NCBI GenBank assembly: GCA_023267275.1
Contig: JAHFNO010000006.1
Span: 9,519-73,518, forward strand
Direction of reading: 5' to 3'
Origin: Candidatus Nomurabacteria bacterium
GTDB taxonomy: Bacteria > Patescibacteriota > Minisyncoccia > Phycocordibacterales > UBA9973
DNA: 64,000 bases
The stretch's first letter is position 1, and each line of letters begins with the position of its first letter. Positions 11,413 through 52,373 of the stretch are shown in pieces. The notes under the pieces were generated by a model. It was not told the origin of the DNA. It did no database searches and worked only from the letters and a program-made list of their open reading frames with translations. Made by a program: the position numbers and the translations under genes.

Positions 11413-12687
11413 ATGTCTCGAAAAACAATTCTTATTCTCATTGCAATTCTCCTCGTCGCACTCGGTGTGTGGTTCTATTTTTCGAGCGGAACTCCTTCAG
11501 GAACAAATTCTTCTGGAACACAAAAAAGTCTTTTGAGTTCTCTTTTTCCTTTTGGCGCGGGGACCAACAATCAACAGAACATAAAAACACAAGAACAAGG
11601 AACAACAAATCCAACTGAAGAGACTCAGAGCTCGAATACTCCAGATAAACTCATTCAAATATCAAATCGATTGGTTGCTGGTTTTATTCCACTTGTCACA
11701 GACACTACACCCATCATTAAACACGACATTGGTGGCGGACCAGAGTCACAGATTACTCAAAGTATTTTCCCAACAGTTCGTTTTGCCGAAAAAGGCACGG
11801 GGTACATTTACGATATTGATGTAAAAGGACAGAACGAAAAAAAGATTTCTGAAACAGTGATCGCTCGAACAGCAGAAGCTCTTTTTGCAAACGGTGGTGT
11901 CAACGTATTGCTCCGCTATATTAAAACCGACAATACAACTATTGCCTCATTCCTCGGCACTGTTACAGCACCAGCAAATACCAATGCGGTCGGCACACTT
12001 ACTGGAAATTTCCTTGAGGAAAATATTCCGACTGTCACAACATCACCTGACAAAAAGAATTTTCTCTTTTTAATACCAACAAACACGGGTATCGCTGGTA
12101 TCAGTATGAAAGGCGATGGAAGCGGTAAGAAGCAATTGTTTACGAGTTCTTTCTCTGAATGGCTCCTCGATTGGGGAACGAGCCCAATGCTTACCAGCAA
12201 GGCTTCTAGCACTGTTCCTGGCTATGCATACACTGTACTTGCCGGTGGATCACTGCAAAAAGTACTGGGCAATATAGATGGCCTTACTACAAAGATTAGT
12301 CCGGATGGAAAGACACTACTCTATAGCGTTTCTGGTGGAGGAAGTCTCAATTTACACATCCTAACGCTAAAAACCGGAGTTGATACAAATACCGGTCTTA
12401 CAACACTTCCGGAAAAATGTACTTGGAATACAACGAGTACTGTCGTTTATTGCGGAGTAGGTACGGCAATAGTATCAGCAGAATATCCTGACTCATGGTA
12501 CAAAGGTGTCACTCATTTCACAGATTCATTTTGGAAAATAGACACAACCACAAAAACCACGACGGAAATAAATACGGGGGAGGGAAACAATCTTGATGTA
12601 ATAAATCCAAGCATCGACCCAACTAGTCAATATCTTATTTTCATAAACAAAACAAACGGTAGTCTTTGGTCTTTACAACTCAATTAA
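11413..12687 (+). CDS. membrane-anchored protein with TolB-like beta-propeller repeats
   Basis: The ORF track starts at 11341, but the Met at 11413 begins a TM anchor (MSRKTILILIAILLVALGVWFYF). PDGKTLLYS-type repeats are present. Confidence 0.45.
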   Translation: MSRKTILILIAILLVALGVWFYFSSGTPSGTNSSGTQKSLLSSLFPFGAGTNNQQNIKTQEQGTTNPTEETQSSNTPDKLIQISNRLVAGFIPLVTDTTPIIKHDIGGGPESQITQSIFPTVRFAEKGTGYIYDIDVKGQNEKKISETVIARTAEALFANGGVNVLLRYIKTDNTTIASFLGTVTAPANTNAVGTLTGNFLEENIPTVTTSPDKKNFLFLIPTNTGIAGISMKGDGSGKKQLFTSSFSEWLLDWGTSPMLTSKASSTVPGYAYTVLAGGSLQKVLGNIDGLTTKISPDGKTLLYSVSGGGSLNLHILTLKTGVDTNTGLTTLPEKCTWNTTSTVVYCGVGTAIVSAEYPDSWYKGVTHFTDSFWKIDTTTKTTTEINTGEGNNLDVINPSIDPTSQYLIFINKTNGSLWSLQLN

Positions 12688-12924: not shown

Positions 12925-13431
12925 TTATGTTCTTGTGTCTCGATATCGAATAACAATGTGTCGTTTCATTCCATCACCCGCTGATTCGGTGTACACATCA
13001 GGGACTTCTCCGAGGAACTCGTGAATGATGCGGCGTTCGTGTGGAGGCATTGGGTCGAGATCAACACTTGATTTAAAATACCGTGCGCGTTCTGCCATCA
13101 TGTGTGCGATGGTTTTTAAATTGTCGATTTTCTTTTTCTCAACATTATTTGCATCAATCACCACACGTGGTCGAACTGTTTCTTCACGCATGATTTGTTC
13201 AACAACTTTTGTTGCCAAGTGATTGAGTGCAGTGAGTGCTTCACCATCACGATTTGAAAGAAGGCGAGTGTGCGGGGAAGTAATAGAAAACCAAATAGTA
13301 TTCATTTTCTCATCATACGAAACAGTAACATCAGCCTCAGTAAAACCGAGTTGAGCAAGCATGCCTTTTATATATGTATGTATTTGGTCGTGTTTCATAG
13401 CGTATATCTCAAATCCTATATTTTGTATCAA
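12925..13431 (-). CDS. jag: RNA-binding protein Jag/KhpB (KH + R3H domains)
   Basis: R3H motif ERRIIHEFL; conserved position downstream of yidC. Confidence 0.75.
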   Translation of the reverse strand: MIQNIGFEIYAMKHDQIHTYIKGMLAQLGFTEADVTVSYDEKMNTIWFSITSPHTRLLSNRDGEALTALNHLATKVVEQIMREETVRPRVVIDANNVEKKKIDNLKTIAHMMAERARYFKSSVDLDPMPPHERRIIHEFLGEVPDVYTESAGDGMKRHIVIRYRDTRT

Positions 13432-13471
13432 TTAGAGGAAAGCCCGCCGATAGGCGGGCTTTTAAGAAAGA

Positions 13472-14200
13472 TTAAGCTTGTTTCTTCGCCTTCATCTTGC
13501 TTCGTGTGTAGAGCTCCTGACCTATAGTAAAGATATTACTCGTAATCCAATAAAGCGCAACTGCTGAAGGAAAAAGGAAGTAAGAGAGTCCGGCAGTCAT
13601 AATAGGGAGTCCATAAATCATTTGTACCTGCATATTCTTGGCAAATTCGGCTTGCATACCAGTACCTGTTGGCTTTGCCTGACGACTCTGCATAAGTTTT
13701 GCTTGTACAAACTGTGTTACTCCAACCAAAACAGCAAATACAATACTGTGCTTCACCGAAAGATCGATAAATCCCAAGAAGTGGAGATTGATGAGTGCTG
13801 GCTGGTGTACAAATGAATAGAGTGTCGCTGGTTGAACAATAGTAAGGATTCCAAGAAAGGCTCGATAGAGAGCAATGAGTACCACAGCCTGGATCAAGAG
13901 TGGCATACAACTTGAAAACGGACTGATATTCTTTTCTTTATACAGTGCGAAAATTTGTTTGTTCTGTTCGGTTTTATCAGTAACTTTTTCTTTGATAGCA
14001 GCAACTTCATCTTGCACACTAGTCATTTTGATCTGGCCTTCGATTGCATGCTGGTTGAGCGGGAAGAGGGCGAGTTTGATAATAATTGTAAGAATAATAA
14101 CCGCAAGACCAAGGTCTCCGTGTGGCAAAATACCAATACCAAAGATCAGTGCATTGTAAAAAGGCTGATAAAAAACAGCGGTCCAAAAAGTGTGTAACAT
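13472..14200 (-). CDS. yidC: membrane protein insertase YidC (short form)
   Basis: Polytopic 242-aa protein in the conserved rnpA-yidD-yidC-jag order. Confidence 0.8.
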   Translation of the reverse strand: MLHTFWTAVFYQPFYNALIFGIGILPHGDLGLAVIILTIIIKLALFPLNQHAIEGQIKMTSVQDEVAAIKEKVTDKTEQNKQIFALYKEKNISPFSSCMPLLIQAVVLIALYRAFLGILTIVQPATLYSFVHQPALINLHFLGFIDLSVKHSIVFAVLVGVTQFVQAKLMQSRQAKPTGTGMQAEFAKNMQVQMIYGLPIMTAGLSYFLFPSAVALYWITSNIFTIGQELYTRSKMKAKKQA

Positions 14201-14310
14201 TGGGTCATTATATCACTAGAGCACGAGAACATGAAAACAAATAAAACCACGCCAGGCGCGGTTTTATTATATCGTGTTTTTATGATTTTTTGTTCTGGTG
14301 TTCTTGTGGT

Positions 14311-14592
14311 TCATGGAACCAGGTCTACACCTGGTGTATTGCGTGGATTACAACGAAGAAGTCGTTTTGATCCTAGATAAACACCTTTGATGGTGCCGTG
14401 TTTTTCAATAGCTTGCTTCATATATTCAGAGCATGTCGGGTAGTACATACACACCTTCCGATTAAGACCAAAAAATCGTGGAATACGTCCGGTGTCAAAA
14501 GACAAGAACTTTTGGTAAAAGATAATCAAAAATATAAAGGGTTTCTTAGAAATTGTGGTCACTGTTTTTATGATCTTTTGTTTATTGTTCAT
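14311..14592 (-). CDS. yidD: membrane protein insertion efficiency factor YidD
   Basis: CMYYPTCSEY motif. Confidence 0.8.
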   Translation of the reverse strand: MNNKQKIIKTVTTISKKPFIFLIIFYQKFLSFDTGRIPRFFGLNRKVCMYYPTCSEYMKQAIEKHGTIKGVYLGSKRLLRCNPRNTPGVDLVP

Positions 14593-37631: not shown

Positions 37632-40040
37632 ATGCCTGAGAAATCTAAAAAAACTACTAAATCTGCCAAGCCTGCCAAGGCAAAACGACTTGTTTTGCTT
37701 GATGCCCATGCCATCATTCACCGCGCCTATCATGCCATGCCTGAGTTTGCGAGTAGTAATGGTGAGCCCACGGGTGCCCTCTACGGCATTTGCTCTATGC
37801 TCATGAAGATAGTGACCGATCTCAAGCCCGACTATATTGTGGCGTGTTATGACCTTCCACAAAAGACCTTCCGTCATGAAGCCTATGAGGCATACAAAGG
37901 TACTCGTTCAAAAGCTGACGATGGGCTCGTTTCGCAAATAAAGCGTTCACGCAGTATTTTCGAAGCATTTAATATTCCCATGTATGACGTGCCTGGTTTT
38001 GAGGCCGATGATATTTTGGGTACGATTGTTGCGCAAACAAAAGCCGACAAGAACATCAACATTGTGATCGCTTCCGGCGATATGGACACACTGCAACTTG
38101 TGGACGACAAAAAAGTGCAGGTGTTTACTTTGAAAAAAGGATTGAACGATACCGTTATGTATGACGAAGATGCAGTCGTGGCACGCTTCGGTTTTTTACC
38201 GAAACTACTTCCTGACTACAAAGGACTTCGCGGTGATCCTTCCGACAACATTGTTGGTATTGCTGGCATTGGAGAAAAGACAGCTACCGATTTGATTGTG
38301 CAGTTTGGTTCAATCGAAGATTTATATAAAAAATTGAAAAAAGATGAGGCTGCAGTTTTGGCAGTGGTGAAGCCACGCATTGTCGAACTTTTGAAAAATG
38401 GGGAAGAGGAGGCACTCTTTTCAAAAACACTCGCCACGATTCGTCGCGATGCGCCAATCACATTTGAACTTCCAAAAAAAGAATTTATGGAAGGCGTGGA
38501 AGTAGAAAAAATCGAAGCCCTATTTCGTGAGCTCGAATTTCGTGGACTTACTCCACGCGTGCACACTATTTTTGGCAAATCAGAAGCTACCGAAGCAAAG
38601 GAACAAGAAGCGAATGAGATTATTGATCCTGAAGAATTGCGCAAACTCGCTATTGGACTTTGGTTGCTCAATTCTGACCTGACCAATATTGGCTACGGTG
38701 ATATTTCAAGTTATAAGGGTTCGAAAAATTTTGCCGAAGGGAAAGCAAAAATCCTCGCCGATATTAAAGAGCGAAATCTTACTTATGTGTATGAAGACAT
38801 TGAGCTTCCCATCTTGCCTGTCGTTGAATCGATGGAAAAGTACGGTATTAGCGTCGATGTGAAAAAGATGGAGAAACTATCGGTGGAAGGTCACAAAGAA
38901 CTTTCTGTTATTGAGAAAAAAATTTGGGGATATGCTGGACGTGAATTTAATATCAATTCTCCAAAACAGCTCGGTGAAATTTTGTTTGATGAACTCAAAG
39001 TAGGCGAAGGGTCAGGAGTCAAAATGAAGAAGACTGAAGGGGGAGCGCGCTCGACTCGTGAAAGCGAGCTCATGAAATTGCAGGGTATTCATCCGATCAT
39101 TGATGAGATTTTGCAGTATCGCGAACTTTCAAAATTGCTCTCTACCTATATTGATACATTGCCATCACTCGTTGCTCCCGATGGACGGCTCCATGCCACA
39201 TTCAACCAGGCGGGCACTACAACAGGACGATTCAATTCTTCAAATCCGAATTTACAGAATATTCCCGTGGGTGACGGTTTCGCCAAAGAAATCCGCGGAG
39301 CATTTATTGCTGCACCAGGACATACTTTTATTGCATTCGATTATTCGCAAATCGAATTGCGTGTTGCCGCGCTCATGTCTGGCGATGATTATTTGATTGA
39401 TACATTTGAGGCAGGCAAAGATATTCACTCCGCTGTGGCGTCGCGTGTGTTTGGAGTACCGGAAGACAAGGTGACACATGACATGCGTCGTAAGGCAAAG
39501 GTGATTAACTTCGGCATTTTGTATGGAATGGGTGTGACTGCACTGCAACAAAATCTCGGTACCGACAGAAAGGAAGCACAATCATTCCACGACAATTACT
39601 TTGCTAGTTTTCCTGCGATTGCTGGCTACATGGAGAGCACGACTGAATTTGCTAAAAAGAATGGGTATACTGAAACACTCTTTGGTCGTCGCCGTTATTT
39701 TCCATTACTGAAATCACCACTGCCATTTTTGCGTGCTGGTGCTGAGCGTCAGGCAGGGAACGCACCACTGCAGGGTACGGCAGCCGATTGTATCAAGATT
39801 GCCATCCGCGATGCCGACCAGGCACTTCGCAATGAAAACCTTATCGACAAAGCTCACCTTGTACTTCAGGTGCACGACGAGCTCGTGTTTGAGGTGGAAG
39901 AATCAGTCGTAGACAAAGTTTCTGTGCTTGTGGAGAATGCTATGAAAAATGTACTCCCACGAGAATTTTTGAAAGGCAAACGACCTGTGCCACTAGAAGT
40001 CCATGTCTCAGTGGGTAAAAACTGGGGTGAATTAAAGTAA
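37632..40040 (+). CDS. polA: DNA polymerase I
   Basis: 5'-nuclease N-terminus; polymerase motifs DYSQIELRVAA, RRKAKVINFGILYGMG and QVHDELVFE. Confidence 0.9.
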   Translation: MPEKSKKTTKSAKPAKAKRLVLLDAHAIIHRAYHAMPEFASSNGEPTGALYGICSMLMKIVTDLKPDYIVACYDLPQKTFRHEAYEAYKGTRSKADDGLVSQIKRSRSIFEAFNIPMYDVPGFEADDILGTIVAQTKADKNINIVIASGDMDTLQLVDDKKVQVFTLKKGLNDTVMYDEDAVVARFGFLPKLLPDYKGLRGDPSDNIVGIAGIGEKTATDLIVQFGSIEDLYKKLKKDEAAVLAVVKPRIVELLKNGEEEALFSKTLATIRRDAPITFELPKKEFMEGVEVEKIEALFRELEFRGLTPRVHTIFGKSEATEAKEQEANEIIDPEELRKLAIGLWLLNSDLTNIGYGDISSYKGSKNFAEGKAKILADIKERNLTYVYEDIELPILPVVESMEKYGISVDVKKMEKLSVEGHKELSVIEKKIWGYAGREFNINSPKQLGEILFDELKVGEGSGVKMKKTEGGARSTRESELMKLQGIHPIIDEILQYRELSKLLSTYIDTLPSLVAPDGRLHATFNQAGTTTGRFNSSNPNLQNIPVGDGFAKEIRGAFIAAPGHTFIAFDYSQIELRVAALMSGDDYLIDTFEAGKDIHSAVASRVFGVPEDKVTHDMRRKAKVINFGILYGMGVTALQQNLGTDRKEAQSFHDNYFASFPAIAGYMESTTEFAKKNGYTETLFGRRRYFPLLKSPLPFLRAGAERQAGNAPLQGTAADCIKIAIRDADQALRNENLIDKAHLVLQVHDELVFEVEESVVDKVSVLVENAMKNVLPREFLKGKRPVPLEVHVSVGKNWGELK

Positions 40041-40042
40041 AT

Positions 40043-40089
40043 TCCTAAAAGCCCTTATTCGGTTGTCACTTGACAACCGAATAAGGGCT
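40043..40089. terminator. strong intrinsic terminator hairpin after polA
   Basis: AAAGCCCTTATTCGGTTGTCA-CTT-GACAACCGAATAAGGGCTTT: 21-bp perfect stem with an A/T-flanked bidirectional design. Confidence 0.75.
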
Positions 40090-40105
40090 TTGATATTATT
40101 AGCTG

Positions 40106-41893
40106 ATGAATAATAATGACTATATTTCAACAACCGATCTTGCTCGCATACTAGGGGTTACCAGACAAGCCATTCAAAAAAAATTAAAGGGAGAAGATGA
40201 GCTAAAAACCAAAGAAGTTGGTACTGGTTTTTTATATCAAATTGGGAGTTTACCTCAATCTATTAGAGATAGAATAAAAACAGAACAAGAAACAGCCAAG
40301 GAAAAAGCAATTTCGAAAAAAATCGGTGATAACCATCATGATCTTAATTTTGAGAAAGAGCTTTGGGCAGCCGCAGACAAACTCCGTGGAAATATCGATG
40401 TTTCCGAATATAAAAATATTGTTCTCGGACTTCTTTTTTTAAAATATATTTCTGATTCATTTTACAAGCGTCGTGAAGAACTTGAAGTGATGACTCGTGA
40501 TACCAAAAATGAGGATTTTTATGTTCCAAATGATGAATCACGCAAGCAGATTCTTGAGACAAAAGATTTTTACACGAGCGTTGGAGTTTTTTATGTTCCT
40601 GAAAAATCCCGTTGGGAATATCTTCAAACAAAAATATTGAACCCAGAATTGGCAAAAATTCTTGATGGCGCGATGGATTTGATTGAACAAGATAATCGAG
40701 CCCAACTCGAGGGAGTTCTTCCGAAAGTGTATACAAAAACGACTCTTGATCACGCGGTGCTTGGCGAACTAGTTAATATTTTTTCTCGGATTTCTTTTGA
40801 TCACAATTTCGACAGAGAAAAAGATATCCTTGGTCGCATCTATGAATATTTCCTTGGGCAGTTTGCTTCATCCGAGGGAAAACGTGGAGGTGAGTTTTTT
40901 ACTCCACGATCAATCGTTAAACTACTCGTAGAAATTCTTGAACCATATGAAAACGCGCGTGTCTTAGATCCTGCTTGTGGTAGCGGAGGTATGTTTGTAT
41001 CTATGGGTGAATATTTACATACTCATAAAATGGATCCATCAAAACTTTCTATAAGCGGACAGGAAAGCAATCAAACTACGCTTCGTCTTGCGAAAATGAA
41101 TCTTGCAATTCGGGGGCTTTCGGGGAAAATTGAGCTGGGAAACACTTACTATCAGGATAAGTTTCCAAACCTTCAAGCTGATTTTGTGATTGCCAATCCT
41201 CCGTTTAATGGCGAATGGGAACCGTCAAAACTTTCAGATAATGACCCTCGTATTATTCTTGGCACTCCGCCGTCTGGTAATGCAAATTTTATGTGGGTGC
41301 AACATTTTGCTCATCACCTTGCTCCGAATGGTCAGGCAGGGTTTGTTATGCCGAATGGCGCGCTTGCAGTGTCAGGTAAAGAAGGAGATTTGCGAAAAAA
41401 ATTAATCGAGGCAGATTTGGTCGACGTAATCATTTCTTGTCCCGGAAAACTTTTTTATAACGTTTCGCTTCCAGTTTCTTTATGGTTTTTGGCAAAAAAT
41501 AAATCCGGCGACCGCTTTCGTAAACGAAAAGGGGAAACACTCTTTATTGATGCGCGCGACACCTTTGAACAAATTTCACGCAAGCAAGTTGTTTTTAATC
41601 CTAAAAATATTGAGAAAATTACAAATACTGTTCGCGCATGGCGAGGAGAAAAAGGTGCCGATAAGTATGAAAATATTGCCGGTTTTTGTAAATCTGCAGC
41701 TCTGAAGGAAATTGAAAAAAATGGGTATGTACTTACTCCCGGCCGATATGTTGGGCTTGCGGATGTCGAAGATGATGGAATTTCATTTGAAGAAAAAATG
41801 CAAAAGCTTTCCAGCGAACTTCGTGCCGCTTTTCTGAAGGGTCGAGATTTGGAAAAACAGATTGAAAATAATTTGAAAGAATTGGGATTTTAA
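40106..41893 (+). CDS. hsdM: type I restriction-modification system methyltransferase subunit HsdM (with extra N-terminal HTH-like segment)
   Basis: Catalytic NPPFNG motif (VIANPPFNGEW) and an AdoMet-binding region. Confidence 0.85.
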   Translation: MNNNDYISTTDLARILGVTRQAIQKKLKGEDELKTKEVGTGFLYQIGSLPQSIRDRIKTEQETAKEKAISKKIGDNHHDLNFEKELWAAADKLRGNIDVSEYKNIVLGLLFLKYISDSFYKRREELEVMTRDTKNEDFYVPNDESRKQILETKDFYTSVGVFYVPEKSRWEYLQTKILNPELAKILDGAMDLIEQDNRAQLEGVLPKVYTKTTLDHAVLGELVNIFSRISFDHNFDREKDILGRIYEYFLGQFASSEGKRGGEFFTPRSIVKLLVEILEPYENARVLDPACGSGGMFVSMGEYLHTHKMDPSKLSISGQESNQTTLRLAKMNLAIRGLSGKIELGNTYYQDKFPNLQADFVIANPPFNGEWEPSKLSDNDPRIILGTPPSGNANFMWVQHFAHHLAPNGQAGFVMPNGALAVSGKEGDLRKKLIEADLVDVIISCPGKLFYNVSLPVSLWFLAKNKSGDRFRKRKGETLFIDARDTFEQISRKQVVFNPKNIEKITNTVRAWRGEKGADKYENIAGFCKSAALKEIEKNGYVLTPGRYVGLADVEDDGISFEEKMQKLSSELRAAFLKGRDLEKQIENNLKELGF

Positions 41894-41897
41894 ATTT

Positions 41898-42563
41898 ATG
41901 GATTTGCAAGACTTAAAAAAGAAGTTTATCAAAGATGAGCTACAGATCACCGAAGATTACGGGAAGATTTTCGCTTTCATCGATTTCTCAAATGTAAATA
42001 AGTGGTTTCAAAACGACAACCAGGATTGGGAGAACAAACTACTTGCTCTCGATGAAAAGTTATCAATAGACTTAGAAAAACTAAAATTATTCGTGGATAT
42101 TTTTAGTGAGAGAGCTAGAATCTACTATGGAGAAAATCCTAAAAACCAAAAGTCTCTCAGTTTTACCTATGTTATGCGGAAAGTTTTTGGCAAGAGAGAT
42201 GTAATGACCAAAGACATTCAAAAAATTAGGCATTATTTTGAGACGGGCGAACATATTCCTGATAAATATGTTGAAACAGACGCAGATGGTAAAAAATTTA
42301 TAGAAATCAGAAAATCAAATTTTGATGTAGAGATTTCTGTAGATGCACTAAGGATGCTTGAACACTATGATACCTTCTGTATTTTTTCCGGAGATGCTGA
42401 TTTTGTGTATTTAAATAATTACTTAAAACGAAAAGGTAAGAAAGTGATTATAGTGAAGGGTGGATATATTTTGACAAAATTCAGAGAGTCGGCTGATTTA
42501 GTCGTAAATGCGCAGAATATTAAGAAGCATATTGCCAAGGTAGAAAAACAAAAACCTGACTAG
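41898..42563 (+). CDS. NYN/LabA-like (PIN-fold) nuclease-domain protein embedded in type I RM operon
   Basis: FIDFSNV ... EISVDALRMLEHYDTFCIFSGDADFVYLNNYLKRKGKKVIIV fits the NYN-domain acidic-residue pattern. It sits 4 nt after the hsdM stop. Confidence 0.5.
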   Translation: MDLQDLKKKFIKDELQITEDYGKIFAFIDFSNVNKWFQNDNQDWENKLLALDEKLSIDLEKLKLFVDIFSERARIYYGENPKNQKSLSFTYVMRKVFGKRDVMTKDIQKIRHYFETGEHIPDKYVETDADGKKFIEIRKSNFDVEISVDALRMLEHYDTFCIFSGDADFVYLNNYLKRKGKKVIIVKGGYILTKFRESADLVVNAQNIKKHIAKVEKQKPD

Positions 42564-42667
42564 GTCAGGTTTTTGTGGAAAGTCATCCCGAATTGACCTC
42601 GGGCAGGTATGGAAGGAGTATAACATTCACCACCCTCAAAATCAAGAGTTATCAACAGAACAAAAAT

Positions 42668-43912
42668 ATGAGCAAATTATTGGAACAAATAAAAAAAAAT
42701 AAAGAAACCAAGCGATTGGGGGATTTAGTTGTGATCAATCAATCGTCAATCACAAAGGATTTTCCGCATAAAGTCATTGAGTATATTGATACTTCTTCTG
42801 TGACACGAAATTCTTTTGATAAACCAGAAATTCTGAATATAAACGAAGCCCCGAGTCGAGCAAAACGATTGGTTAAAGACGGAGACACGATACTTTCTAC
42901 AGTAAGGCCCAGCCAGCATCATTATGGTTTTATCCGAGCTCCTAAACCAAACACAATTGTTTCAACAGGATTTGCTGTCCTGACTCCCCAAAACGATATT
43001 GATCCATTTTATTTATATTCATATTTAACTCAGGATTCAGTGACAAGTATTCTGAATGCGATAGCCGAAGCAACTACCACGACCTTCCCAGCATTTAGAC
43101 CTGAAGTTCTTTCAGATATGGAAATAGAAATTCCGGATCTACCAACTCAAAAGAAAATTGCAGAAATTTTGGGCGCTTATGACGCAAAGATTGAGAATAA
43201 CAATCAAATAATAAAAAATCTTGAATTGACGGCACAAACTATTTTCGATGAATGGTTTGTAAAATTTCGATTTCCTGGGCATGGGAAAGTGAAAATGGTT
43301 GAGAGTGAAATGGGGGAGATTCCTGAAGGGTGGGAAGTAAAGAAGGTTTCTGATGTTGCTCATCTTAACAAGGGTGTTTCTTATACATCAGCCGAAATAA
43401 ACACTGAGCATAAAGGTGCAGCGTTAATTAATCTAGGAAACTTTCTGAGAGGAGGAGGTTTTAATTCTGATGGAATAAAATATTACACAGGCGAATATAA
43501 ATCAACCCATATTGTAAAACCCGGACAAATTTTAATTGCTATGACTGATTTAACTTCCAACAGAGAAGTCATTGGTCATCCAGCTAGACTGCCTGAAAAT
43601 TTTAAGGAAGCTGTAATTTCTCTTGATGTCTGTTCTCTTAGCCCCGGAAAAGATATATATCTTGAATTTATCTACAATTCTATGCTGAAGAGAAGTTTTT
43701 CTAAATTGATGGCTAGTTGTGCGTCCGGAACAAATGTTTCTCATCTCAAGAAAGAAAACATTGAAGGATATGATCTAATATTTCCCGAGGAATCATTATT
43801 GGTTCAATTTAACAATTTTACGCAACCCGTTTTTACCAAACAAGCTATCTTAGAAGAAGAAAATCAAAGATTAAAACAGTCGAGAGATCAATTACTGGCA
43901 AAACTAATTTAA
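42668..43912 (+). CDS. hsdS: type I RM specificity subunit HsdS (two target-recognition domains)
   Basis: Position between hsdM and hsdR; two-TRD architecture with conserved central and C-terminal coiled regions. The Met at 42668 is preferred to the ORF-track start at 42575. Confidence 0.7.
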   Translation: MSKLLEQIKKNKETKRLGDLVVINQSSITKDFPHKVIEYIDTSSVTRNSFDKPEILNINEAPSRAKRLVKDGDTILSTVRPSQHHYGFIRAPKPNTIVSTGFAVLTPQNDIDPFYLYSYLTQDSVTSILNAIAEATTTTFPAFRPEVLSDMEIEIPDLPTQKKIAEILGAYDAKIENNNQIIKNLELTAQTIFDEWFVKFRFPGHGKVKMVESEMGEIPEGWEVKKVSDVAHLNKGVSYTSAEINTEHKGAALINLGNFLRGGGFNSDGIKYYTGEYKSTHIVKPGQILIAMTDLTSNREVIGHPARLPENFKEAVISLDVCSLSPGKDIYLEFIYNSMLKRSFSKLMASCASGTNVSHLKKENIEGYDLIFPEESLLVQFNNFTQPVFTKQAILEEENQRLKQSRDQLLAKLI

Positions 43913-43917
43913 ATTTT

Positions 43918-44598
43918 ATGGATAAAACTAATTTAACTGAATTCCAACAATACTTATATGATCAACACAAGGAAACATCTGAAATGAGGTCAAAATTCGG
44001 GCGTGAATTCCTGACTATTTTTAGCAATGCCAATAAATCAAGGATTGAACTTTCTAAACATATCACCATGCTCACTGTTGGATTGCTTGCTGTGGGTGTT
44101 TTTTGGCAAACTGGAAGTTTATATGCGAAGGTTGGATTTGGTTTTGCGCTGATAACTATTGTTTTTACCGTATTCTTTCTACGCGAAAGAATTGATCAAG
44201 AGGGAAGAGAAGCTGTAACGATGATAAAGGTTTACAATGCGATGTTTGATAAATACCTTAGCATAATTCTCGCAGCAGTTAAAAAAGATAACCCCAAAGA
44301 ATATTTCCAAAACCTAAATAATTTTCTCGAGAAAGATCCTGATTTTTTGAACATTCAGAATAATTACGAAAGTAGTTTAATTAGAAACGAGATTCTTGAT
44401 TACGGTGGAGAAGTCGTGAATTTTCTATTTCTTTCTACACTAACATTCTATGTATTAGCTTTTTTATCAATCCAGTTTAATTTTATTTTGGTAGTATTAG
44501 TTATCACCCTTACTTTTTCATTTTCAGTATTTGAAACAGCAAGTTTTATTCTCCGACCTTTAAATAGATGGTTAAATAAAAATATATCTAGGAAATAA
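43918..44598 (+). CDS. hypothetical 4-TM membrane protein inside the RM locus
   Basis: Hydrophobic helices (LTVGLLAVGVFW, FGFALITIVFTVFFL, two C-terminal); no known motif. Confidence 0.5.
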   Translation: MDKTNLTEFQQYLYDQHKETSEMRSKFGREFLTIFSNANKSRIELSKHITMLTVGLLAVGVFWQTGSLYAKVGFGFALITIVFTVFFLRERIDQEGREAVTMIKVYNAMFDKYLSIILAAVKKDNPKEYFQNLNNFLEKDPDFLNIQNNYESSLIRNEILDYGGEVVNFLFLSTLTFYVLAFLSIQFNFILVVLVITLTFSFSVFETASFILRPLNRWLNKNISRK

Positions 44599-44599
44599 T

Positions 44600-44666
44600 A
44601 TGAACCCCTCAACGAAAAAAACATAGCGGAAGAATCCCTCATCGACTGGCTGAAAGGTGAGGGGGG
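44600..44666 (+). pseudogene. degenerate duplicate of the hsdR 5' end (frameshifted fragment)
   Basis: About 65 nt are near-identical to 45890-45956 but one C is missing from the C-run, so it reads MNPSTKKT-stop. Confidence 0.7.
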
Positions 44667-44754
44667 TGAATACTCAAAAACCAACTTTTAATATACCTTT
44701 ACTTATTAAAAGTTAAATGCTAAACTTTTAATATAAATAATCATATTATAACTT

Positions 44755-45885
44755 ATGCAACAAATATTTAAAGCAGGTATATATAGACAACAACTGGAAT
44801 ACAAGAGTTTCAGCCCTTTTCCTATCAATAAACAATTTGAGTGGACTGATAAGAAAATAAATATGCTTTCAGATGAGGCTATGCGTCTTTTGGGTGAACT
44901 TAATGCTTATTCCACACTCGTTCCTGATGTGAATTATTTTATAAAAATGCACATCGCAAAAGAAGCGACGAAATCAAGCCGAATTGAAGGTACAAAAACA
45001 AATATCGATGAAGTGCTTCTTTCTAAAGAAGATGTTGATCCTGAACGACGAGATGATTGGAAGGAGGTGCATAATTATATTGTAGCGATGAATCAGGCAA
45101 TAAAAGAACTCTCAACCCTACCACTTTCAATGCGTCTTTTGAAAAACGCTCATAAAATACTTTTAACACACGTGCGCGGAGAGCACAAAACCCCAGGGGA
45201 GATTCGCATCAGTCAAAATTGGATAGGTGGTTCAAGTCTAAAAGACGCGTTCTTTATACCACCTCATCCAAGTGAAGTTGGAGAACTTATTTCTGATCTT
45301 GAAAAATTTTGGCACAACAGAAATCTTGAAATTCCATTCCTAATAAAAATGGCAATAAGTCATTATCAGTTTGAGACAATTCACCCGTTCCTAGATGGCA
45401 ACGGAAGAATAGGACGACTGCTCATTACTTTGCAGTTAGTTGATAAAAAGATACTCCAGAGACCGACCTTGTATCTTTCCGATTTTTTTGAAAGAAACAA
45501 AGGTTCGTATTATGATTCGCTGACCCTTGTTCGTTCTTCTAACAATATAGAGCAATGGATTAAATTTTTTCTTTCAGGTGTAATTGAAACAGCCCATAAG
45601 GGTAAGGAAACATTTGAAAAAATAATCGTATTGCGCCAAAAATATGAGCAAAAAATCATGAAATTGGGTCGTCGAGCCGAACTCGGACAGCGGTTGCTAA
45701 TTAAACTCTTTTCTCAACCGATATTAAATGTAAATCAGATTGCAAAGGAATTGGATATTACATTTCCTACAGCATCGTCGCTTGTGGACGAGTTTGAGCA
45801 AAAAGGCATTCTAAAGGAAGTTACCGGTTTTTCAAGAAACCGTTCTTTTGAGTTGTTTGAGTATGTTGAATTGTTTAGGAATTAA
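44755..45885 (+). CDS. fic: Fic/DOC family protein (AMPylation-type motif)
   Basis: Fic motif [12 protein letters not shown]; C-terminal winged-helix-like region. Confidence 0.85.
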
Positions 45886-45889
45886 TTAT

Positions 45890-48800
45890 ATGAACCCCCT
45901 CAACGAAAAAAACATAGCGGAAGAATCCCTCATCGACTGGCTGAAAGGCGAGGGGTATGAGTATGTAAAAGGTACAGATATCGCCCCGGGGCAGCCTCGT
46001 GCGGAGCGCGAGGATTTCCGGGGTGTGGTTTTAAAAGACCGCCTGCTTGGAGCTATTCGTAGGATCAATCCACAACTGCCTGCTGAACAGGCGGAACAAG
46101 TTGTTGTCGATATTGCCTCGTATCACAATGCTGATTTAATGCTCGGAAACAAGGAGATGTTTTCTTTTATTACAGAAGGAGTAAAAAGGACTTGGCAAGA
46201 ACAAGGAAATGAAAAAACAGAAATAGTAAAGTTGATTGATTTCGAGAATAAAGATGCGAATGAGTTCCTTGTAGTCAATCAATTTACGGTGCAGGGGGTT
46301 GACTCACTCGGTCGTCCCGATGTCGTTATTTTCATAAATGGATTGCCACTTGCGGTGTTCGAGCTGAAGAGCCCGGTACGACAAACCGCTGATATCCGTG
46401 AGGCATACAGAGATATTGAGGATTACAAAAAAGAAATACCGAAACTTTTTTTCTACAACCAGATTGTAGCGATTTCGGATTTATTCCACGCGCATCATGG
46501 AACGATCTCATCTTCGTGGGAACGTTATGGCACATGGAAGGGAATAAAAAATGAAACTGATGTTCCGAAAGATACAGAGGAACTCGAAGTGTTATTGAAA
46601 GGGCTTTTCAATAAGGAGCGGCTTTTGGATGTGATCGAAAACTTTATTGTTTTTGAAGCAAGTGGTGATGGTGATGCCGTAACATATACAAAAAAGATGT
46701 GTTTGTATCATCAGTATTATGGTGTCAATAAAACAATTGAGAGTACGATTCGCTCAGTTCTCGGCAAGCAAGATAGAAAAATCGGCGTATTTTGGCACAC
46801 ACAAGGATCAGGCAAATCGCTCTCAATGGTTTTTTATGTGAACAAAACAAAAAATATACCTGAGCTCAAAAGTCCGGCGTATGTGTTTTTGACTGATCGT
46901 GAAGATTTAGACGACCAGTTGTTTAAGACATTCAATCACACCGGATATGGAACTCTAGCCAAGAAGGCCTCAAGCATCAAAGATTTGCGCAGTCGACTTA
47001 CGTATATTGGCGGGGAACTTATTTTCACGACAATTCAAAAGTTTCAAGAAGATCCTGACGCGCATGAGGCCTTGAGTTTGCGCGAGAACATTATTGTTTT
47101 GGCCGACGAAGCGCACCGCACGCAGTATAGCAATCTGGCAGGCAATGTTCGTCTTGCACTGCCGAATGCGAGTTTTTTGGGAGTCACAGGTACGCCGATT
47201 GCTCGGAATGACAAAGATACAGTACGGGTGTTTGGCCCAGTTGTGAGTTCGTATAAGATCAGTCAATCAGTCAAAGACAAATCAACCGTGCCAATTTATT
47301 ACGAGGGGCGGCTTGTGCCACTCCATCTCGCTGATCAATTAATCGACAGCAAATTCGACGCGGTTCTCGGTGAAGTTGTGCCGGATGATAACGCACGAAT
47401 GCGTAAGGAGTATGCAGTGCTTGAGGAAGTCGTGGGCGCACCGAGCCGAATAGAGAAAATCGCACAGGATGTCATACATCATTTTAATAATCATCCAATT
47501 GAAGGTAAGGCCATGATTGTGACGATGAGCCGCCGAATCGCGGTGCTTATGTATGAGGCCATCCAAAAGATACCTAGTGTTCCAGAAGTGGCAGTCGTGA
47601 TTTCAAACAACGATGAATATAGTTCAAGAATTCAAAAGGAACATAATATAAAAACTTTAGAGCGAAGGTTTAAAGATGACAAAGATCCGCTCAAAATCGC
47701 CATTCTTTGTGATATGTGGCTCACCGGTTTTGACGTTCCGTGTATGCATACACTGTATCTCGATAAGCCTCTCAAAAATCATGGCTTGATGCAGGCGATA
47801 GCTCGCGTGAATCGAGTGTATAAAGACAAGCCAGGAGGTTTGGTTGTGGACTATATTGGTATTGCAGAGAATTTGAAAAAAGCACTTGCGTGGTATGACT
47901 CCGACATACAAAATGATGCGCTTGTTCCTATTTCCGAAGTTGTAGAGCAAATGAATATTCTCCGTGATCAAGTCACCAAATTTTTCGGGAAACTCGACTA
48001 TACTGCATGGAAGAAACTAAAAGGTATTGAGCTTGTCACAATTATGCAGGCAGGAATGAATGAGGTCATCACTCAAGGTGGCATATTAAATGACGAACAG
48101 AAGATGAAATACATGGGTACAGTTTCTAAGCTTTCAAAATTACACGCACTTGTAATGCCGGGGGATGAAGCTATGAAAATAATATCGGATCTCCAATTTT
48201 TTCAGGCTATACGAGAGGCAATTCGCAAACAAACTGTTTTGCCGCATGCGATATTCCCTGAAGAAACGGAAAGCGCGATTCGTAGCCTGATGCATAATTC
48301 AATTCAGGCTGAGGGCATCGTTGATCTTTTTAGCGTCCCAGGAGAAGAGAAGAAAAGTATTTCGATATTTGATGAGAAGTTTATTGAAGGTATCCGAAAA
48401 TCACACTACCAGAATTTTGCAGTCGATTCTGTGCGAAAATTGCTCGATCAGGAAATACGATCACGAATGCGATTGAATAATGCTCGATACGAAACAATGC
48501 TCTCGCTTCTTGAGGGTTTGATTGAAAAATATGAGAACAATGTAATTAGTTCTGCTGAAATTATAAAGCAGTTGCTTGAAATTGCAGATGGTATTAAAAA
48601 GCTAGATCAAGAAAGTAAGGAAACAGGACTCTCGAATGAAGAAATTGTTTTTTATGATTCTTTAGCCACCGACCCTGATCTAAAAAAAGCCGGAATTGAT
48701 ATTAAAGAATTTGTAAAGGAATTAACAAGGCGTATTCGACGTGATTTGGCAATCGATTGGACAAACAATGAAACAATCAAAGCTCGTATTCGTCAGAATG

Positions 48801-48919
48801 TGAGATTACTTTTATTACAAAAAGGGATTGTTGAGGAGATGCAGACGAAGCGACTAATTGAGTCGATATATCAAGAGACAGTAAGAGTATATAGAGGATT
48901 TTTACCTACAGTCTTATAA
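45890..48919 (+). CDS. hsdR: type I restriction enzyme R subunit HsdR
   Basis: N-terminal nuclease region; SF2 helicase motifs (GSGKS-like P-loop, DEAH-box VLADEAHRTQY); ~1010 aa. Confidence 0.85.
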   Translation: MNPLNEKNIAEESLIDWLKGEGYEYVKGTDIAPGQPRAEREDFRGVVLKDRLLGAIRRINPQLPAEQAEQVVVDIASYHNADLMLGNKEMFSFITEGVKRTWQEQGNEKTEIVKLIDFENKDANEFLVVNQFTVQGVDSLGRPDVVIFINGLPLAVFELKSPVRQTADIREAYRDIEDYKKEIPKLFFYNQIVAISDLFHAHHGTISSSWERYGTWKGIKNETDVPKDTEELEVLLKGLFNKERLLDVIENFIVFEASGDGDAVTYTKKMCLYHQYYGVNKTIESTIRSVLGKQDRKIGVFWHTQGSGKSLSMVFYVNKTKNIPELKSPAYVFLTDREDLDDQLFKTFNHTGYGTLAKKASSIKDLRSRLTYIGGELIFTTIQKFQEDPDAHEALSLRENIIVLADEAHRTQYSNLAGNVRLALPNASFLGVTGTPIARNDKDTVRVFGPVVSSYKISQSVKDKSTVPIYYEGRLVPLHLADQLIDSKFDAVLGEVVPDDNARMRKEYAVLEEVVGAPSRIEKIAQDVIHHFNNHPIEGKAMIVTMSRRIAVLMYEAIQKIPSVPEVAVVISNNDEYSSRIQKEHNIKTLERRFKDDKDPLKIAILCDMWLTGFDVPCMHTLYLDKPLKNHGLMQAIARVNRVYKDKPGGLVVDYIGIAENLKKALAWYDSDIQNDALVPISEVVEQMNILRDQVTKFFGKLDYTAWKKLKGIELVTIMQAGMNEVITQGGILNDEQKMKYMGTVSKLSKLHALVMPGDEAMKIISDLQFFQAIREAIRKQTVLPHAIFPEETESAIRSLMHNSIQAEGIVDLFSVPGEEKKSISIFDEKFIEGIRKSHYQNFAVDSVRKLLDQEIRSRMRLNNARYETMLSLLEGLIEKYENNVISSAEIIKQLLEIADGIKKLDQESKETGLSNEEIVFYDSLATDPDLKKAGIDIKEFVKELTRRIRRDLAIDWTNNETIKARIRQNVRLLLLQKGIVEEMQTKRLIESIYQETVRVYRGFLPTVL

Positions 48920-48932
48920 AATGAGGGAAGGG

Positions 48933-48988
48933 TATACCCGCACACTTCCTTTTTTGACCCTTTCCAAAAAGGAAGTGTGCGGGTATAC
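48933..48988. repeat. 23-bp perfect palindrome (arms equal to the inverted repeats flanking the GIY-YIG gene)
   Basis: GTATACCCGCACACTTCCTTTTT-N10-AAAAAGGAAGTGTGCGGGTATAC; the core ACCCGCACACTT(C/A)CTTTTT also flanks 50240-50494. Confidence 0.8.
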
Positions 48989-50210: not shown

Positions 50211-50513
50211 ACCCGCACACTTACTTTTTTATTACTCTCATGTTTTATGTATATGTTTTGAAAAGTAAAAAAGATGAAGAATTGTACATTGGTTCAACCA
50301 ATGATCTTAAGCGTAGAATAAAAGAACATGAGAGTGGAGAGAGTTTTTCAACAAAGCTGAGGAGACCTTTTGATTTAATTTATTACGAAGCATATAAAGA
50401 TGAGAAGGACGCAAGAAAGAGAGAGTCATCATTGAAACTTCGTGGAAGGTCTCGTTTTCATTTAATGCAAAGATTAAAAAACTCTCTCCTATAAAAAAGT
50501 AAGTGTGCGGGTA
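50211..50513 (+). mobile_element. GIY-YIG gene bracketed by perfect 20-bp inverted repeats (putative mini mobile element)
   Basis: Left inverted repeat ACCCGCACACTTACTTTTTT at 50211-50230; its exact reverse complement at 50494-50513; the CDS between them is GIY-YIG. Confidence 0.55.
50240..50494 (+). CDS. GIY-YIG (URI-domain) nuclease family protein, 84 aa
   Basis: MFYVYVLKSKKDEELYIGSTNDLKRRIKEHESGE ... matches the short stand-alone GIY-YIG family. Confidence 0.8.
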   Translation: MFYVYVLKSKKDEELYIGSTNDLKRRIKEHESGESFSTKLRRPFDLIYYEAYKDEKDARKRESSLKLRGRSRFHLMQRLKNSLL

Positions 50514-52193: not shown

Positions 52194-52266
52194 CCGCCCG
52201 TAGCTCAGCTGGTAGAGCAGCTCCCTTTTAAGGAGAGGGTCGCAGGTTCGATTCCTGCCGGGCGGA
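52194..52266 (+). tRNA. tRNA-Lys (anticodon UUU)
   Basis: Manual fold: acceptor CCGCCCG/CGGGCGG, D-loop AGCTGGTA, anticodon loop CTTTTAA, T-arm GCAGG-TTCGATT-CCTGC, discriminator A. No CCA is encoded. Confidence 0.85.
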
Positions 52267-52373
52267 CACTTACAAAAATGAGCTCGACTTTTAGGTCGAG
52301 CCATTTTTGTGTGTCCGCCCGGAGAAAGCCAACTTCTCATTCAGCAGAATGACTCTTGGAGTAAGGCTTTCGT

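Follow-up and report, generated by a model that had tools for sequence, protein, structure and literature searches.

A type I restriction-modification operon of a Patescibacteria genome is a mosaic that carries independently acquired genes, one of them an NYN nuclease gene with a predicted small RNA partner

Do the three accessory genes nested in a type I restriction-modification (RM) operon of an ultra-small bacterium of the Patescibacteria form one functional module, or were they gathered separately? The operon lies in a 64,000-nt stretch of the contig JAHFNO010000006.1, hereafter the window, and consists of six intact open reading frames (ORFs), all on the + strand, in the order hsdM, an NYN nuclease gene, hsdS, the gene of a four-transmembrane (TM) protein, a fic gene, and hsdR. 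This order had been given in a preliminary description made from the sequence, as had the 221-aa NYN protein whose gene begins 4 nt after the hsdM stop codon, and both were confirmed (the NYN gene at 41898-42563). Its identification of a type I RM locus with embedded accessory genes also holds, as all three hsd subunits are intact by profiles and motifs. That description further suggested that the three genes make up one RM-coupled module in a combination not described before. The module is not supported by the analysis, in which the fic gene was found to be a later insertion, the cargo to be swapped in sister operons, and a homologue of the TM protein to occur without NYN and Fic. The claim of novelty was overstated, since the Fic protein matches the PADLOC SoFic model (3e-117) and defence genes, PIN-like and NYN nucleases included, have already been published as embedded in type I RM and other defence operons. 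As a mosaic the locus belongs to a known kind, and it contains a known, SoFic-type system; what is new in it is the small RNA (sRNA) partner of the NYN gene. In addition to the minus-strand sRNA gene and its promoter, a remnant of the hsdR 5′ end and two boundary palindromes were found that the preliminary description did not contain. I consider it fairly probable that the RM operon is a scaffold into which three cargo units, namely the NYN gene with its sRNA as a toxin-antitoxin (TA)-like pair, the TM gene, and the fic gene, were inserted on separate occasions, each at a junction between genes.

That type I RM operons can harbour embedded genes has been described before, PrrC in EcoprrI being a precedent ('guilt-by-embedding' survey, bioRxiv 10.1101/2024.01.29.577857), and published work also links PIN-like nucleases to type I RM and further defence operons (Matelska et al. 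2017, PMC5499597). The window operon resembles the surveyed cases in that its accessory genes are nested between hsd genes, in that the junctions are hotspots, and in that the cargo differs between close relatives. It differs from the described embedded genes in that insertion scars are visible as duplicated hsd gene ends of 55-80 nt. Is the cargo inherited together? Among the comparison loci (numbered with the prefix L), L005, L006, and L007 share the hsdM-NYN-hsdS...hsdR backbone, with NYN proteins 92-97% identical and HsdM and HsdR proteins 73-86% identical. In the hsdS-hsdR slot, L006 has a gene for a 287-aa coiled-coil/TM protein and L007 has a DUF4145 gene, while neither has a fic gene or the gene of the 226-aa TM protein. 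L007 also has a DUF3800 gene between hsdM and NYN, and this gene is flanked by a duplicated hsdM 3′ end of ~55 nt. The trio of NYN, TM, and Fic was seen solely in this genome's own assemblies. Since sister loci swap cargo and homologues of the TM and Fic proteins occur apart, the hsd junctions behave as interchangeable cargo slots. The three cargo units are unrelated and were acquired independently, and the trio is not co-inherited. They would act in parallel with restriction, not as a coordinated trio.

The clearest record of an insertion lies around the fic gene (44755..45885, + strand). It was found that a frameshifted remnant of the hsdR 5′ end, ~80 nt in length (44600..44679, + strand), directly follows the stop codon of the TM gene. 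The remnant is 91% identical to 45896-45970 over 75 nt, and the lack of one C causes the frameshift. Between the remnant and the fic ORF there is an AT-rich leader of 75 nt (44680..44754, + strand) with repeated AACTTTTAATATA boxes, which is likely to be the gene's own promoter. The remnant is the scar of the fic insertion, and the fic gene arrived later than the TM gene. Because the remnant comes right after the TM stop codon, the ancestral order was hsdS-TM-hsdR, with the TM gene abutting hsdR. A parallel case is L082, in which a fic gene encoding a 91% identical protein has kept the same leader and has its own duplicated hsdR 5′ end, but a DUF4145 gene precedes it where the window has the TM gene. 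Duplicated hsd gene ends are the pattern expected of single-crossover integration of a circular DNA with short homology. It may be supposed that a circular DNA with a short stretch of hsdR homology entered at the start of hsdR through a single homologous crossover, which duplicated ~80 nt of hsdR.

The 376-aa Fic protein has Fic_N and Fic domains and a C-terminal winged helix-turn-helix (HTH) domain, with weak HTH_13 and MarR matches in the C-terminal part. An active-site motif of the form HxFx(D/E)GNGRxxR is present at residue 210, and the N-terminal inhibitory motif (S/T)xxxE(G/N) that defines class II Fic proteins (PMC12249575) is present as SSRIEG at residue 74. The protein matches the PADLOC SoFic model PDLC03963 over residues 15-374 (3.2e-117), and its nearest solved structures are those of Shewanella oneidensis SoFic (3eqx/3zcn; 5e-34, residues 15-358), with which it shares domain order, length, Fic motif, and inhibitory motif. 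It is a SoFic-type class II AMPylase, so named, and not called a curated equivalog, because its score lies under the NCBIfam SoFic equivalog cutoff (NF046030; 169 vs 550 bits), which speaks against a full identification. SoFic has been published as an anti-phage system of one gene (Millman et al. 2022) and has been proposed to work by abortive infection through AMPylation. Unlike the SoFic system, the window fic gene sits within the RM operon of a Patescibacteria genome and has no downstream AS1-like small ORF, because hsdR begins 4 nt past the Fic stop codon. Expressed from its own leader, this Fic would work as an auto-inhibited AMPylase and a stand-alone abortive-infection effector. The preliminary description had left room for a Fic of a housekeeping clade, but the homologues were found in defence or mobile islands. 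Homologues with 80-84% identity occur outside RM operons in three settings, that is, adjacent to a further type I RM but not within it, in an island with DpnI and MazE that lies between the genes of PIF1 and IleRS, and near a retroelement. The interval between the PIF1 helicase and IleRS genes is a variable island in different Patescibacteria (L002, 8033-14320; L124, 1-14477). It contains NYN and the sRNA in L002, and DpnI, MazE, HTH_17 with a short Fic, and a 376-aa Fic in L124-L126.

The 226-aa TM protein (43918..44598, + strand) has about four hydrophobic helices and belongs to a small family. It had no Pfam, PADLOC, or PHROG match, and fold and family searches gave no informative match. 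The profile searches of the PADLOC type that the preliminary description had called for thus named Fic as SoFic and NYN as NYN and left the TM protein without a match. Its AF2 model (pLDDT 86) shows a long helical hairpin and two further TM helices. R89/E90/D93 and E165 are invariant in the family, with conserved LRExxD and GE motifs. The protein is a near-orphan, with two sequences in 5.8 billion and ~30 remote relatives by exhaustive HMMER. The sole close homologue, in L026, is 80% identical and is found in the order hsdS-TM-hsdR with a gap of 2 nt between TM and hsdR. Recurrence of this protein in RM loci, which the preliminary description had asked about, is thus seen in one close homologue inside another type I RM, but that RM lacks NYN and Fic, and its RM proteins are 31-40% identical to those of the window. 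The TM gene would originally have abutted hsdR, before the arrival of the fic gene.

The first cargo unit is the NYN gene (41898..42563, + strand), whose 221-aa product has a LabA-like PIN fold. The NYN assignment of the preliminary description survives both profile and fold searches. Pfam PF01936 matches with 54 bits against a cutoff of 24.2, covering residues 102-200 only, PADLOC NYN matches with 7.6e-7, and the best PDB matches are the LabA-like 2qip (8e-6) and the NYN domain of MARF1. The AF2 model has a pLDDT of 73, with an insert of low confidence at residues 79-108. The acidic residues D29, D143, E145, D149, D166, and D168 are invariant in 20 NYN sequences. The protein belongs to a distinct LabA-like family that is restricted to Patescibacteria. 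The family is rare and patchy, being present in 21 species among 185,579 genomes, with 46-97% identity over several Patescibacteria lineages. NYN, like the TM protein, has no PHROG family, and a search of IMG/VR with NYN gave only three weak relatives on viral contigs, one of them with the sRNA.

It was noticed that the nucleotide alignments of NYN loci all extend ~50-100 nt past the stop codon, revealing a conserved element. Depending on the locus, the NYN stop codon precedes one of the hairpins of the element (H1), falls in the 5′ arm or the loop of that hairpin, or follows it. Thus, the constraint is on the nucleotides and not on the protein. In the window, the element is a predicted sRNA gene on the − strand (42538..42613), convergent with the NYN gene and sharing with the NYN ORF its final ~20 nt. 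The predicted RNA is ~68 nt in length, running from about 42610 to about 42543, and consists, from 5′ to 3′, of AUACCUG, hairpin H2 (CCCGA/UCGGG), a conserved linker, hairpin H1, and a U-tract. H2 has 5 bp and a 7-nt loop, and the element is closed by CAGGTAT on the + strand. H1 has 13 bp (42548-42576), spans the NYN stop codon, and forms with the U-tract a predicted intrinsic terminator. A promoter with a TG extension, TTGATT-N17-TATACT, is predicted on the − strand at 42617..42645. Over the loci, its consensus is TTGAYT-N17-TATAYT, located ~7 nt before AUACCUG; the hexamers are kept while the sequence of the spacer varies.

Is the folded molecule an RNA, and of which strand? In the loci found through the NYN protein, nine pairs have changed on both sides, and 0 of 500 shuffles equalled this. 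In an alignment of 73 distinct sequences fitted to a covariance model, with the metagenome set seeded on H2, pairing holds in 99.0% of cells, and compensatory changes occur in 11 of 18 pairs (0/500 shuffles equal; slid controls 25-55%). The cells that are not Watson-Crick comprise 42 G·U on the minus strand versus 4 A·C, and this excess indicates that the folded molecule is an RNA from the strand opposite NYN. The conservation of the element, its covariation, its strand, and its promoter are clear, and from these sequence features I infer that the sRNA is expressed. Permissive and gathering scans against Rfam 15 gave nothing at the gathering threshold; the sole match was rnk_pseudo (E=0.85, 25 bits vs a gathering score of 55). 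No mention of this sRNA was found in the literature searched. The strong conservation of its primary sequence hints at protein binding. Three other ideas about the element were abandoned. An integron attC-like site was set aside because the G·U bias is specific to one strand and the promoter is conserved, and a tRNA-like reading of H2 with a 'CCA' was dropped because there is no acceptor pairing. As for a phage origin, the sRNA motif had 0 matches in IMG/VR, and one viral contig with a relative of NYN has the sRNA.

DnaA-box-like sequences flank the sRNA promoter in the window, TTATCAACA at 42649-42657 and a second one at 42578-42586. Similar sequences were seen in L002, L006, L008, L012, L018, L019, and L022. 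TGTGGATAA (with at most one mismatch) lies just upstream of the −35 hexamer in 27 of 78 distinct loci, and TATCCACA lies within the sRNA in 58 of the 78. They may reflect control by DnaA, or a long-range stem in the 3′ UTR of the NYN mRNA.

How constant is the pairing of NYN and the sRNA? The sRNA is present in all of the 24 loci found through the NYN protein, a small sample. In 23 of them it scores 76-99 bits with one copy per NYN; the remaining one, the IMG/VR contig L133, scores 56 bits and encodes a 45% identical NYN. No NYN of this family without the sRNA was seen in these 24 NYN-seeded loci. A metagenome scan with an 18-nt H2 motif yielded 93 loci, a set which, being seeded on the RNA motif, cannot show NYN without the RNA and under-samples H2 variation. 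About 62 of the 93 have NYN at a fixed convergent distance, and ~19 are chance 18-mers without a covariance-model match. Nine orphan sRNAs are full, high-scoring RNAs without the 221-aa NYN. The orphan of L083 is located directly after hsdM, and that of L034 between an ImmA/IrrE-HTH gene and hsdS, while a second sRNA copy in L034 adjoins NYN upstream of hsdM. The two copies of L034 (1575-1650 and 5250-5325 on one 6-kb contig) bracket hsdM, a 111-aa gene, and the HTH/ImmA-IrrE gene. In L067 (10100-11232), the orphan is convergent with a RhuM gene (Pfam 2e-98) and lies beside a different NYN gene of 342 aa. This RhuM gene ends in a ...KQKPD tail as NYN does and overlaps the sRNA terminator likewise, and the 342-aa NYN gene is divergent, on the promoter side. 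Another orphan is near a MazF gene (L071), three come after a polA-type 5′-3′ exonuclease gene (L119, L121, and L059), and the last two are in L117 and L064.

Does the NYN-sRNA unit belong to RM operons? In the 48 of 56 dereplicated NYN loci that have enough upstream sequence, hsdM lies 5-8 nt upstream of NYN in ~13 (~27%), one of which has a DUF3800 insert between the two genes. These hsdM genes span two families ~33% identical. L015 has a C-terminal remnant of hsdM before a stand-alone NYN gene, and in L012 NYN and the sRNA are ahead of a fic gene and a type IIG-like enzyme gene. The recurrence of NYN homologues in RM loci that the preliminary description had asked about is thus real directly after hsdM in two divergent RM families, but most copies are outside RM. 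The window NYN resembles the PIN-like/NYN nucleases of defence operons (PMC5499597; HEC-09) in being a PIN-fold nuclease that is transcriptionally coupled to subunits of a type I RM and has no protein antitoxin. It differs from them in that most copies of its family lie outside RM and in that it has a convergent small RNA partner, which those works do not report. A polA gene or a stand-alone 5′-3′ exonuclease gene is directly upstream of NYN with the sRNA, or of an orphan sRNA, in L025, L085, L059, L119, and L121, and in the window polA (37632-40040) is upstream of the entire island. The polA side may be a recurrent insertion site or an ancestral position.

What may the pair do? I infer a mobile TA-like unit. 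This reading was adopted because orphan RNAs exist while no orphan NYN was found, because the spread is patchy and apparently horizontal, because RM junctions and the vicinity of toxin-antitoxin or defence genes are enriched for the unit, and because the NYN active site is intact. More specifically, I tentatively propose, at less than even odds, that NYN and its obligate convergent ~68-nt RNA are a new RNA-antidote TA or abortive-infection module, hybrid between types I and III, that spreads horizontally, lodges preferentially after hsdM, and leaves orphan RNAs. NYN would be a toxic RNase translationally coupled to hsdM. The convergent sRNA would keep it harmless by antisense pairing with the 3′ end of the NYN mRNA at the shared terminator, by binding the protein, or by both. 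The pair could then serve as an addiction or abortive-infection layer that also stabilises the island.

Type I TA systems with a 3′-overlapping convergent antisense RNA are known from Bacillus subtilis, namely txpA/RatA and bsrG/SR4. The NYN-sRNA unit is like them in anatomy, as the convergent small RNA gene overlaps the 3′ end of the protein gene with a shared bidirectional terminator, and also in being mobile and patchy with orphan RNA copies. It is unlike them in that the overlap is just ~20 nt of the ORF and the protein taken as the toxin is an NYN nuclease, soluble and 221 aa long, not a small hydrophobic peptide. In type III TA systems (ToxIN, AbiQ), an endoribonuclease is neutralised by a structured RNA and abortive infection results. 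The same kind of neutralisation, with abortive infection as its outcome, would be at work here. The differences are that the unit has no tandem RNA repeats, that its sRNA is single-copy, downstream, and antisense, not upstream and sense, and that the nuclease has an NYN fold, not that of ToxN.

Several points weigh against the scaffold reading with its TA-like pair, in addition to the small NYN-seeded sample and the seeding of the metagenome set stated above. Known type I toxins are mostly small peptides. The sRNA promoter and terminator are predictions. Trans-pairing between the sRNA and the NYN 5′ region gave z-scores of about 0 (RNAduplex, 19 loci), and conservation in the unpaired regions of the sRNA exceeds what an antidote acting only by cis-antisense pairing would need. 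A different NYN protein, HEC-09, embedded in Hma systems, gave no defence in published tests. The neighbours of NYN outside RM are heterogeneous and mostly housekeeping (155 Pfam families, none dominant), and such contexts also fit a non-defence RNase with its regulator. Finally, the TM protein may be functionally linked to hsdR or to Fic.

The housekeeping contexts, which include the PIF1-IleRS and miaA-peroxiredoxin intervals, agree with an alternative in which NYN is a housekeeping or regulatory RNase with an antisense regulator and no role in conflict, its position after hsdM being a by-product of an insertion hotspot; the regulatory roles of LabA-like NYN proteins in cyanobacteria agree with it. 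I regard this as unlikely, although worth keeping in mind, as the unit has a very sparse and patchy distribution (21 species among 185,579 genomes), shows 60-97% identity across distant lineages, and follows hsdM directly and in tight coupling in ~27% of copies and in two RM families. Moreover, orphan sRNAs are found beside RhuM, MazF, ImmA/IrrE, and hsd genes, and the PIF1-IleRS slot is itself a variable island with DpnI, MazE, and Fic in L124. Could the pair instead control the RM operon? Transcription running head-on from the sRNA promoter, alone or together with cleavage by NYN between hsdM and hsdS/hsdR, would delay or limit restriction relative to methylation while the operon becomes established in a new host. 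In two RM families the unit indeed lies precisely at the boundary of hsdM and hsdS-hsdR, the 104-nt gap between NYN and hsdS is entirely taken up by the sRNA gene with its promoter, which face the operon, and the sRNA alone is retained at hsd junctions in L083 and L034. But ~70% of the units adjoin no RM, and since the unit has the same form away from RM, its primary function cannot be RM-specific. This control device is thus quite improbable.

Still less credit is given to the coordinated module of the preliminary description, in which NYN, the membrane protein, and Fic are held in check by HsdMSR and released on subverted restriction, as one RM-coupled abortive-infection or toxin module in the manner of PrrC. 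It has that precedent, the placement of all three genes inside one operon-like array with gaps of 4-5 nt at three junctions, and the adjacency of NYN and Fic outside RM in L012 and L030 (Fic is a neighbour in 3 of 38 non-RM NYN loci). Nevertheless, it is very improbable given that the trio is confined to this genome's own assemblies, that the fic gene came in later, with a leader of its own and a scar, that sister loci exchange cargo, that the TM homologue is present without NYN or Fic, and that Fic homologues of 80-84% identity are outside RM operons. Unlike PrrC and RloC, the accessory proteins also lack an ABC-ATPase-like N-domain with an anticodon-nuclease C-domain; Pfam, PADLOC, and NCBIfam searches found this architecture in none of the three. 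The remaining alternative takes the conserved element as a DNA-level site, such as a recombination site, cassette boundary, or cruciform, and not as an RNA gene. Two copies do bracket hsdM and two cargo genes in L034, the element sits at junctions where the cargo varies, and in L024 the two arms of H1 look like an integron core/inverse-core pair. Against this, G·U cells outnumber A·C cells 42:4, a strand-specific bias that fits an RNA, the −35 and −10 hexamers are kept at a fixed spacing, a U-tract follows H1, and no integrase or recombinase is consistently beside the element, so that I give this explanation hardly any weight.

With the operon read as a scaffold for separate cargo units, the locus shows stepwise, through recombination scars, how type I RM operons gather defence cargo in genome-reduced CPR bacteria. 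Through the NYN-sRNA pair, a bacterial LabA-like NYN family on which the literature covered contains no functional studies gains a testable function as an RNA-controlled nuclease. The sRNA is a candidate structured RNA for Patescibacteria, and none was found described beside NYN in the literature searched. If the proposal is true, RNA-antitoxin systems would extend to a new toxin fold. The covariance model, the clear −35/−10 promoter, and the terminator make the sRNA easy to seek in metatranscriptomes.

The RM core that hosts the cargo is a complete and intact type I operon by its subunits, domains, and catalytic motifs, and HsdMSR would restrict unmethylated DNA. The hsdM gene (40106..41893, + strand) encodes a 595-aa protein with an N-terminal HTH extension, HsdM_N, and N6_Mtase (PF12161, 3.5e-25; PF02384, 8e-102, by profile search), with DPACGSG at residue 288 and NPPF at residue 364. 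The HTH extension comprises residues 1-80 (40106-40345) with a weak HTH_11 match. The unrelated HsdM of the L010 type, also a host of NYN, bears a MerR/excisionase-like HTH, and the 531-aa HsdM of L026, from an RM without NYN, is missing the extension. This extension may serve the autoregulation of the operon. The hsdS gene (42668..43912, + strand) encodes 414 aa with two target-recognition domains; Methylase_S matches in two stretches and PADLOC Specificity_I over the full length (1.7e-65). Its start codon is probably the conserved ATG 42668 and not GTG 42575, where the ORF opens, since the extension from GTG would cross the conserved non-coding element; ATG 42668 is also called in the independent assembly L027. 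The hsdR gene (45890..48919, + strand) encodes 1009 aa with HSDR_N, an SF2 ATPase (GSGKS, DEAH), and T1RH-like_C, and its product matches TIGR00348 with 603 bits against a cutoff of 284.55, as well as HSDR_N, SWI2_SNF2, T1R_D3-like, and T1RH-like_C. Its start codon is probably the conserved ATG 45890, 4 nt past the Fic stop codon, and not TTG 45848, where the ORF opens.

Other RM operons of this group also carry embedded genes. L010 (10802-14403), of the second RM family that hosts NYN, has five more embedded genes between NYN and hsdR, including a half-size hsdS, a Trypsin_2 peptidase gene, and a Bro-N protein gene, and a YgjP/DUF45-like gene after hsdR. L122, another type I RM of Patescibacteria, has a 218-aa gene in the hsdM-hsdS slot (11575-12231) and a 316-aa gene in the hsdS-hsdR slot (13418-14368), neither with a Pfam or PHROG match, and no sRNA there. 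RadC and PhdYeFM/ParE are upstream of the RM in L122, as in L026.

The RM island of the window is flanked by polA and holA, and its G+C content is 0.32-0.35 over the cargo versus 0.41-0.47 in the flanks. Near-identical database proteins are labelled Candidatus Yonathbacteria or Paceibacterota. Both ends of the island have a long, perfect, terminator-like palindrome, one with 21-nt arms 3′ of polA (40048..40091) and one with 26-nt arms directly 3′ of hsdR (48932..48988). A predicted hsdM promoter, TTGACA-18-TATTAT (40070-40099), is embedded in the polA terminator palindrome and is the best sigma-70-like match in the region (11/12, TG-extended). As it ends 7 nt before the hsdM ATG, a leaderless or very-short-leader hsdM mRNA is implied. 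Small GIY-YIG nuclease genes are close to both the window RM island (50240-50494) and that of L006 (7442-7687). Further downstream, a tRNA gene was found at 52194-52267 (Rfam tRNA score of 68.8 bits). ARAGORN called it tRNA-Stop(tta), but a suppressor is improbable, and the anticodon loop CUUUUAA fits an ordinary tRNA-Lys(UUU).

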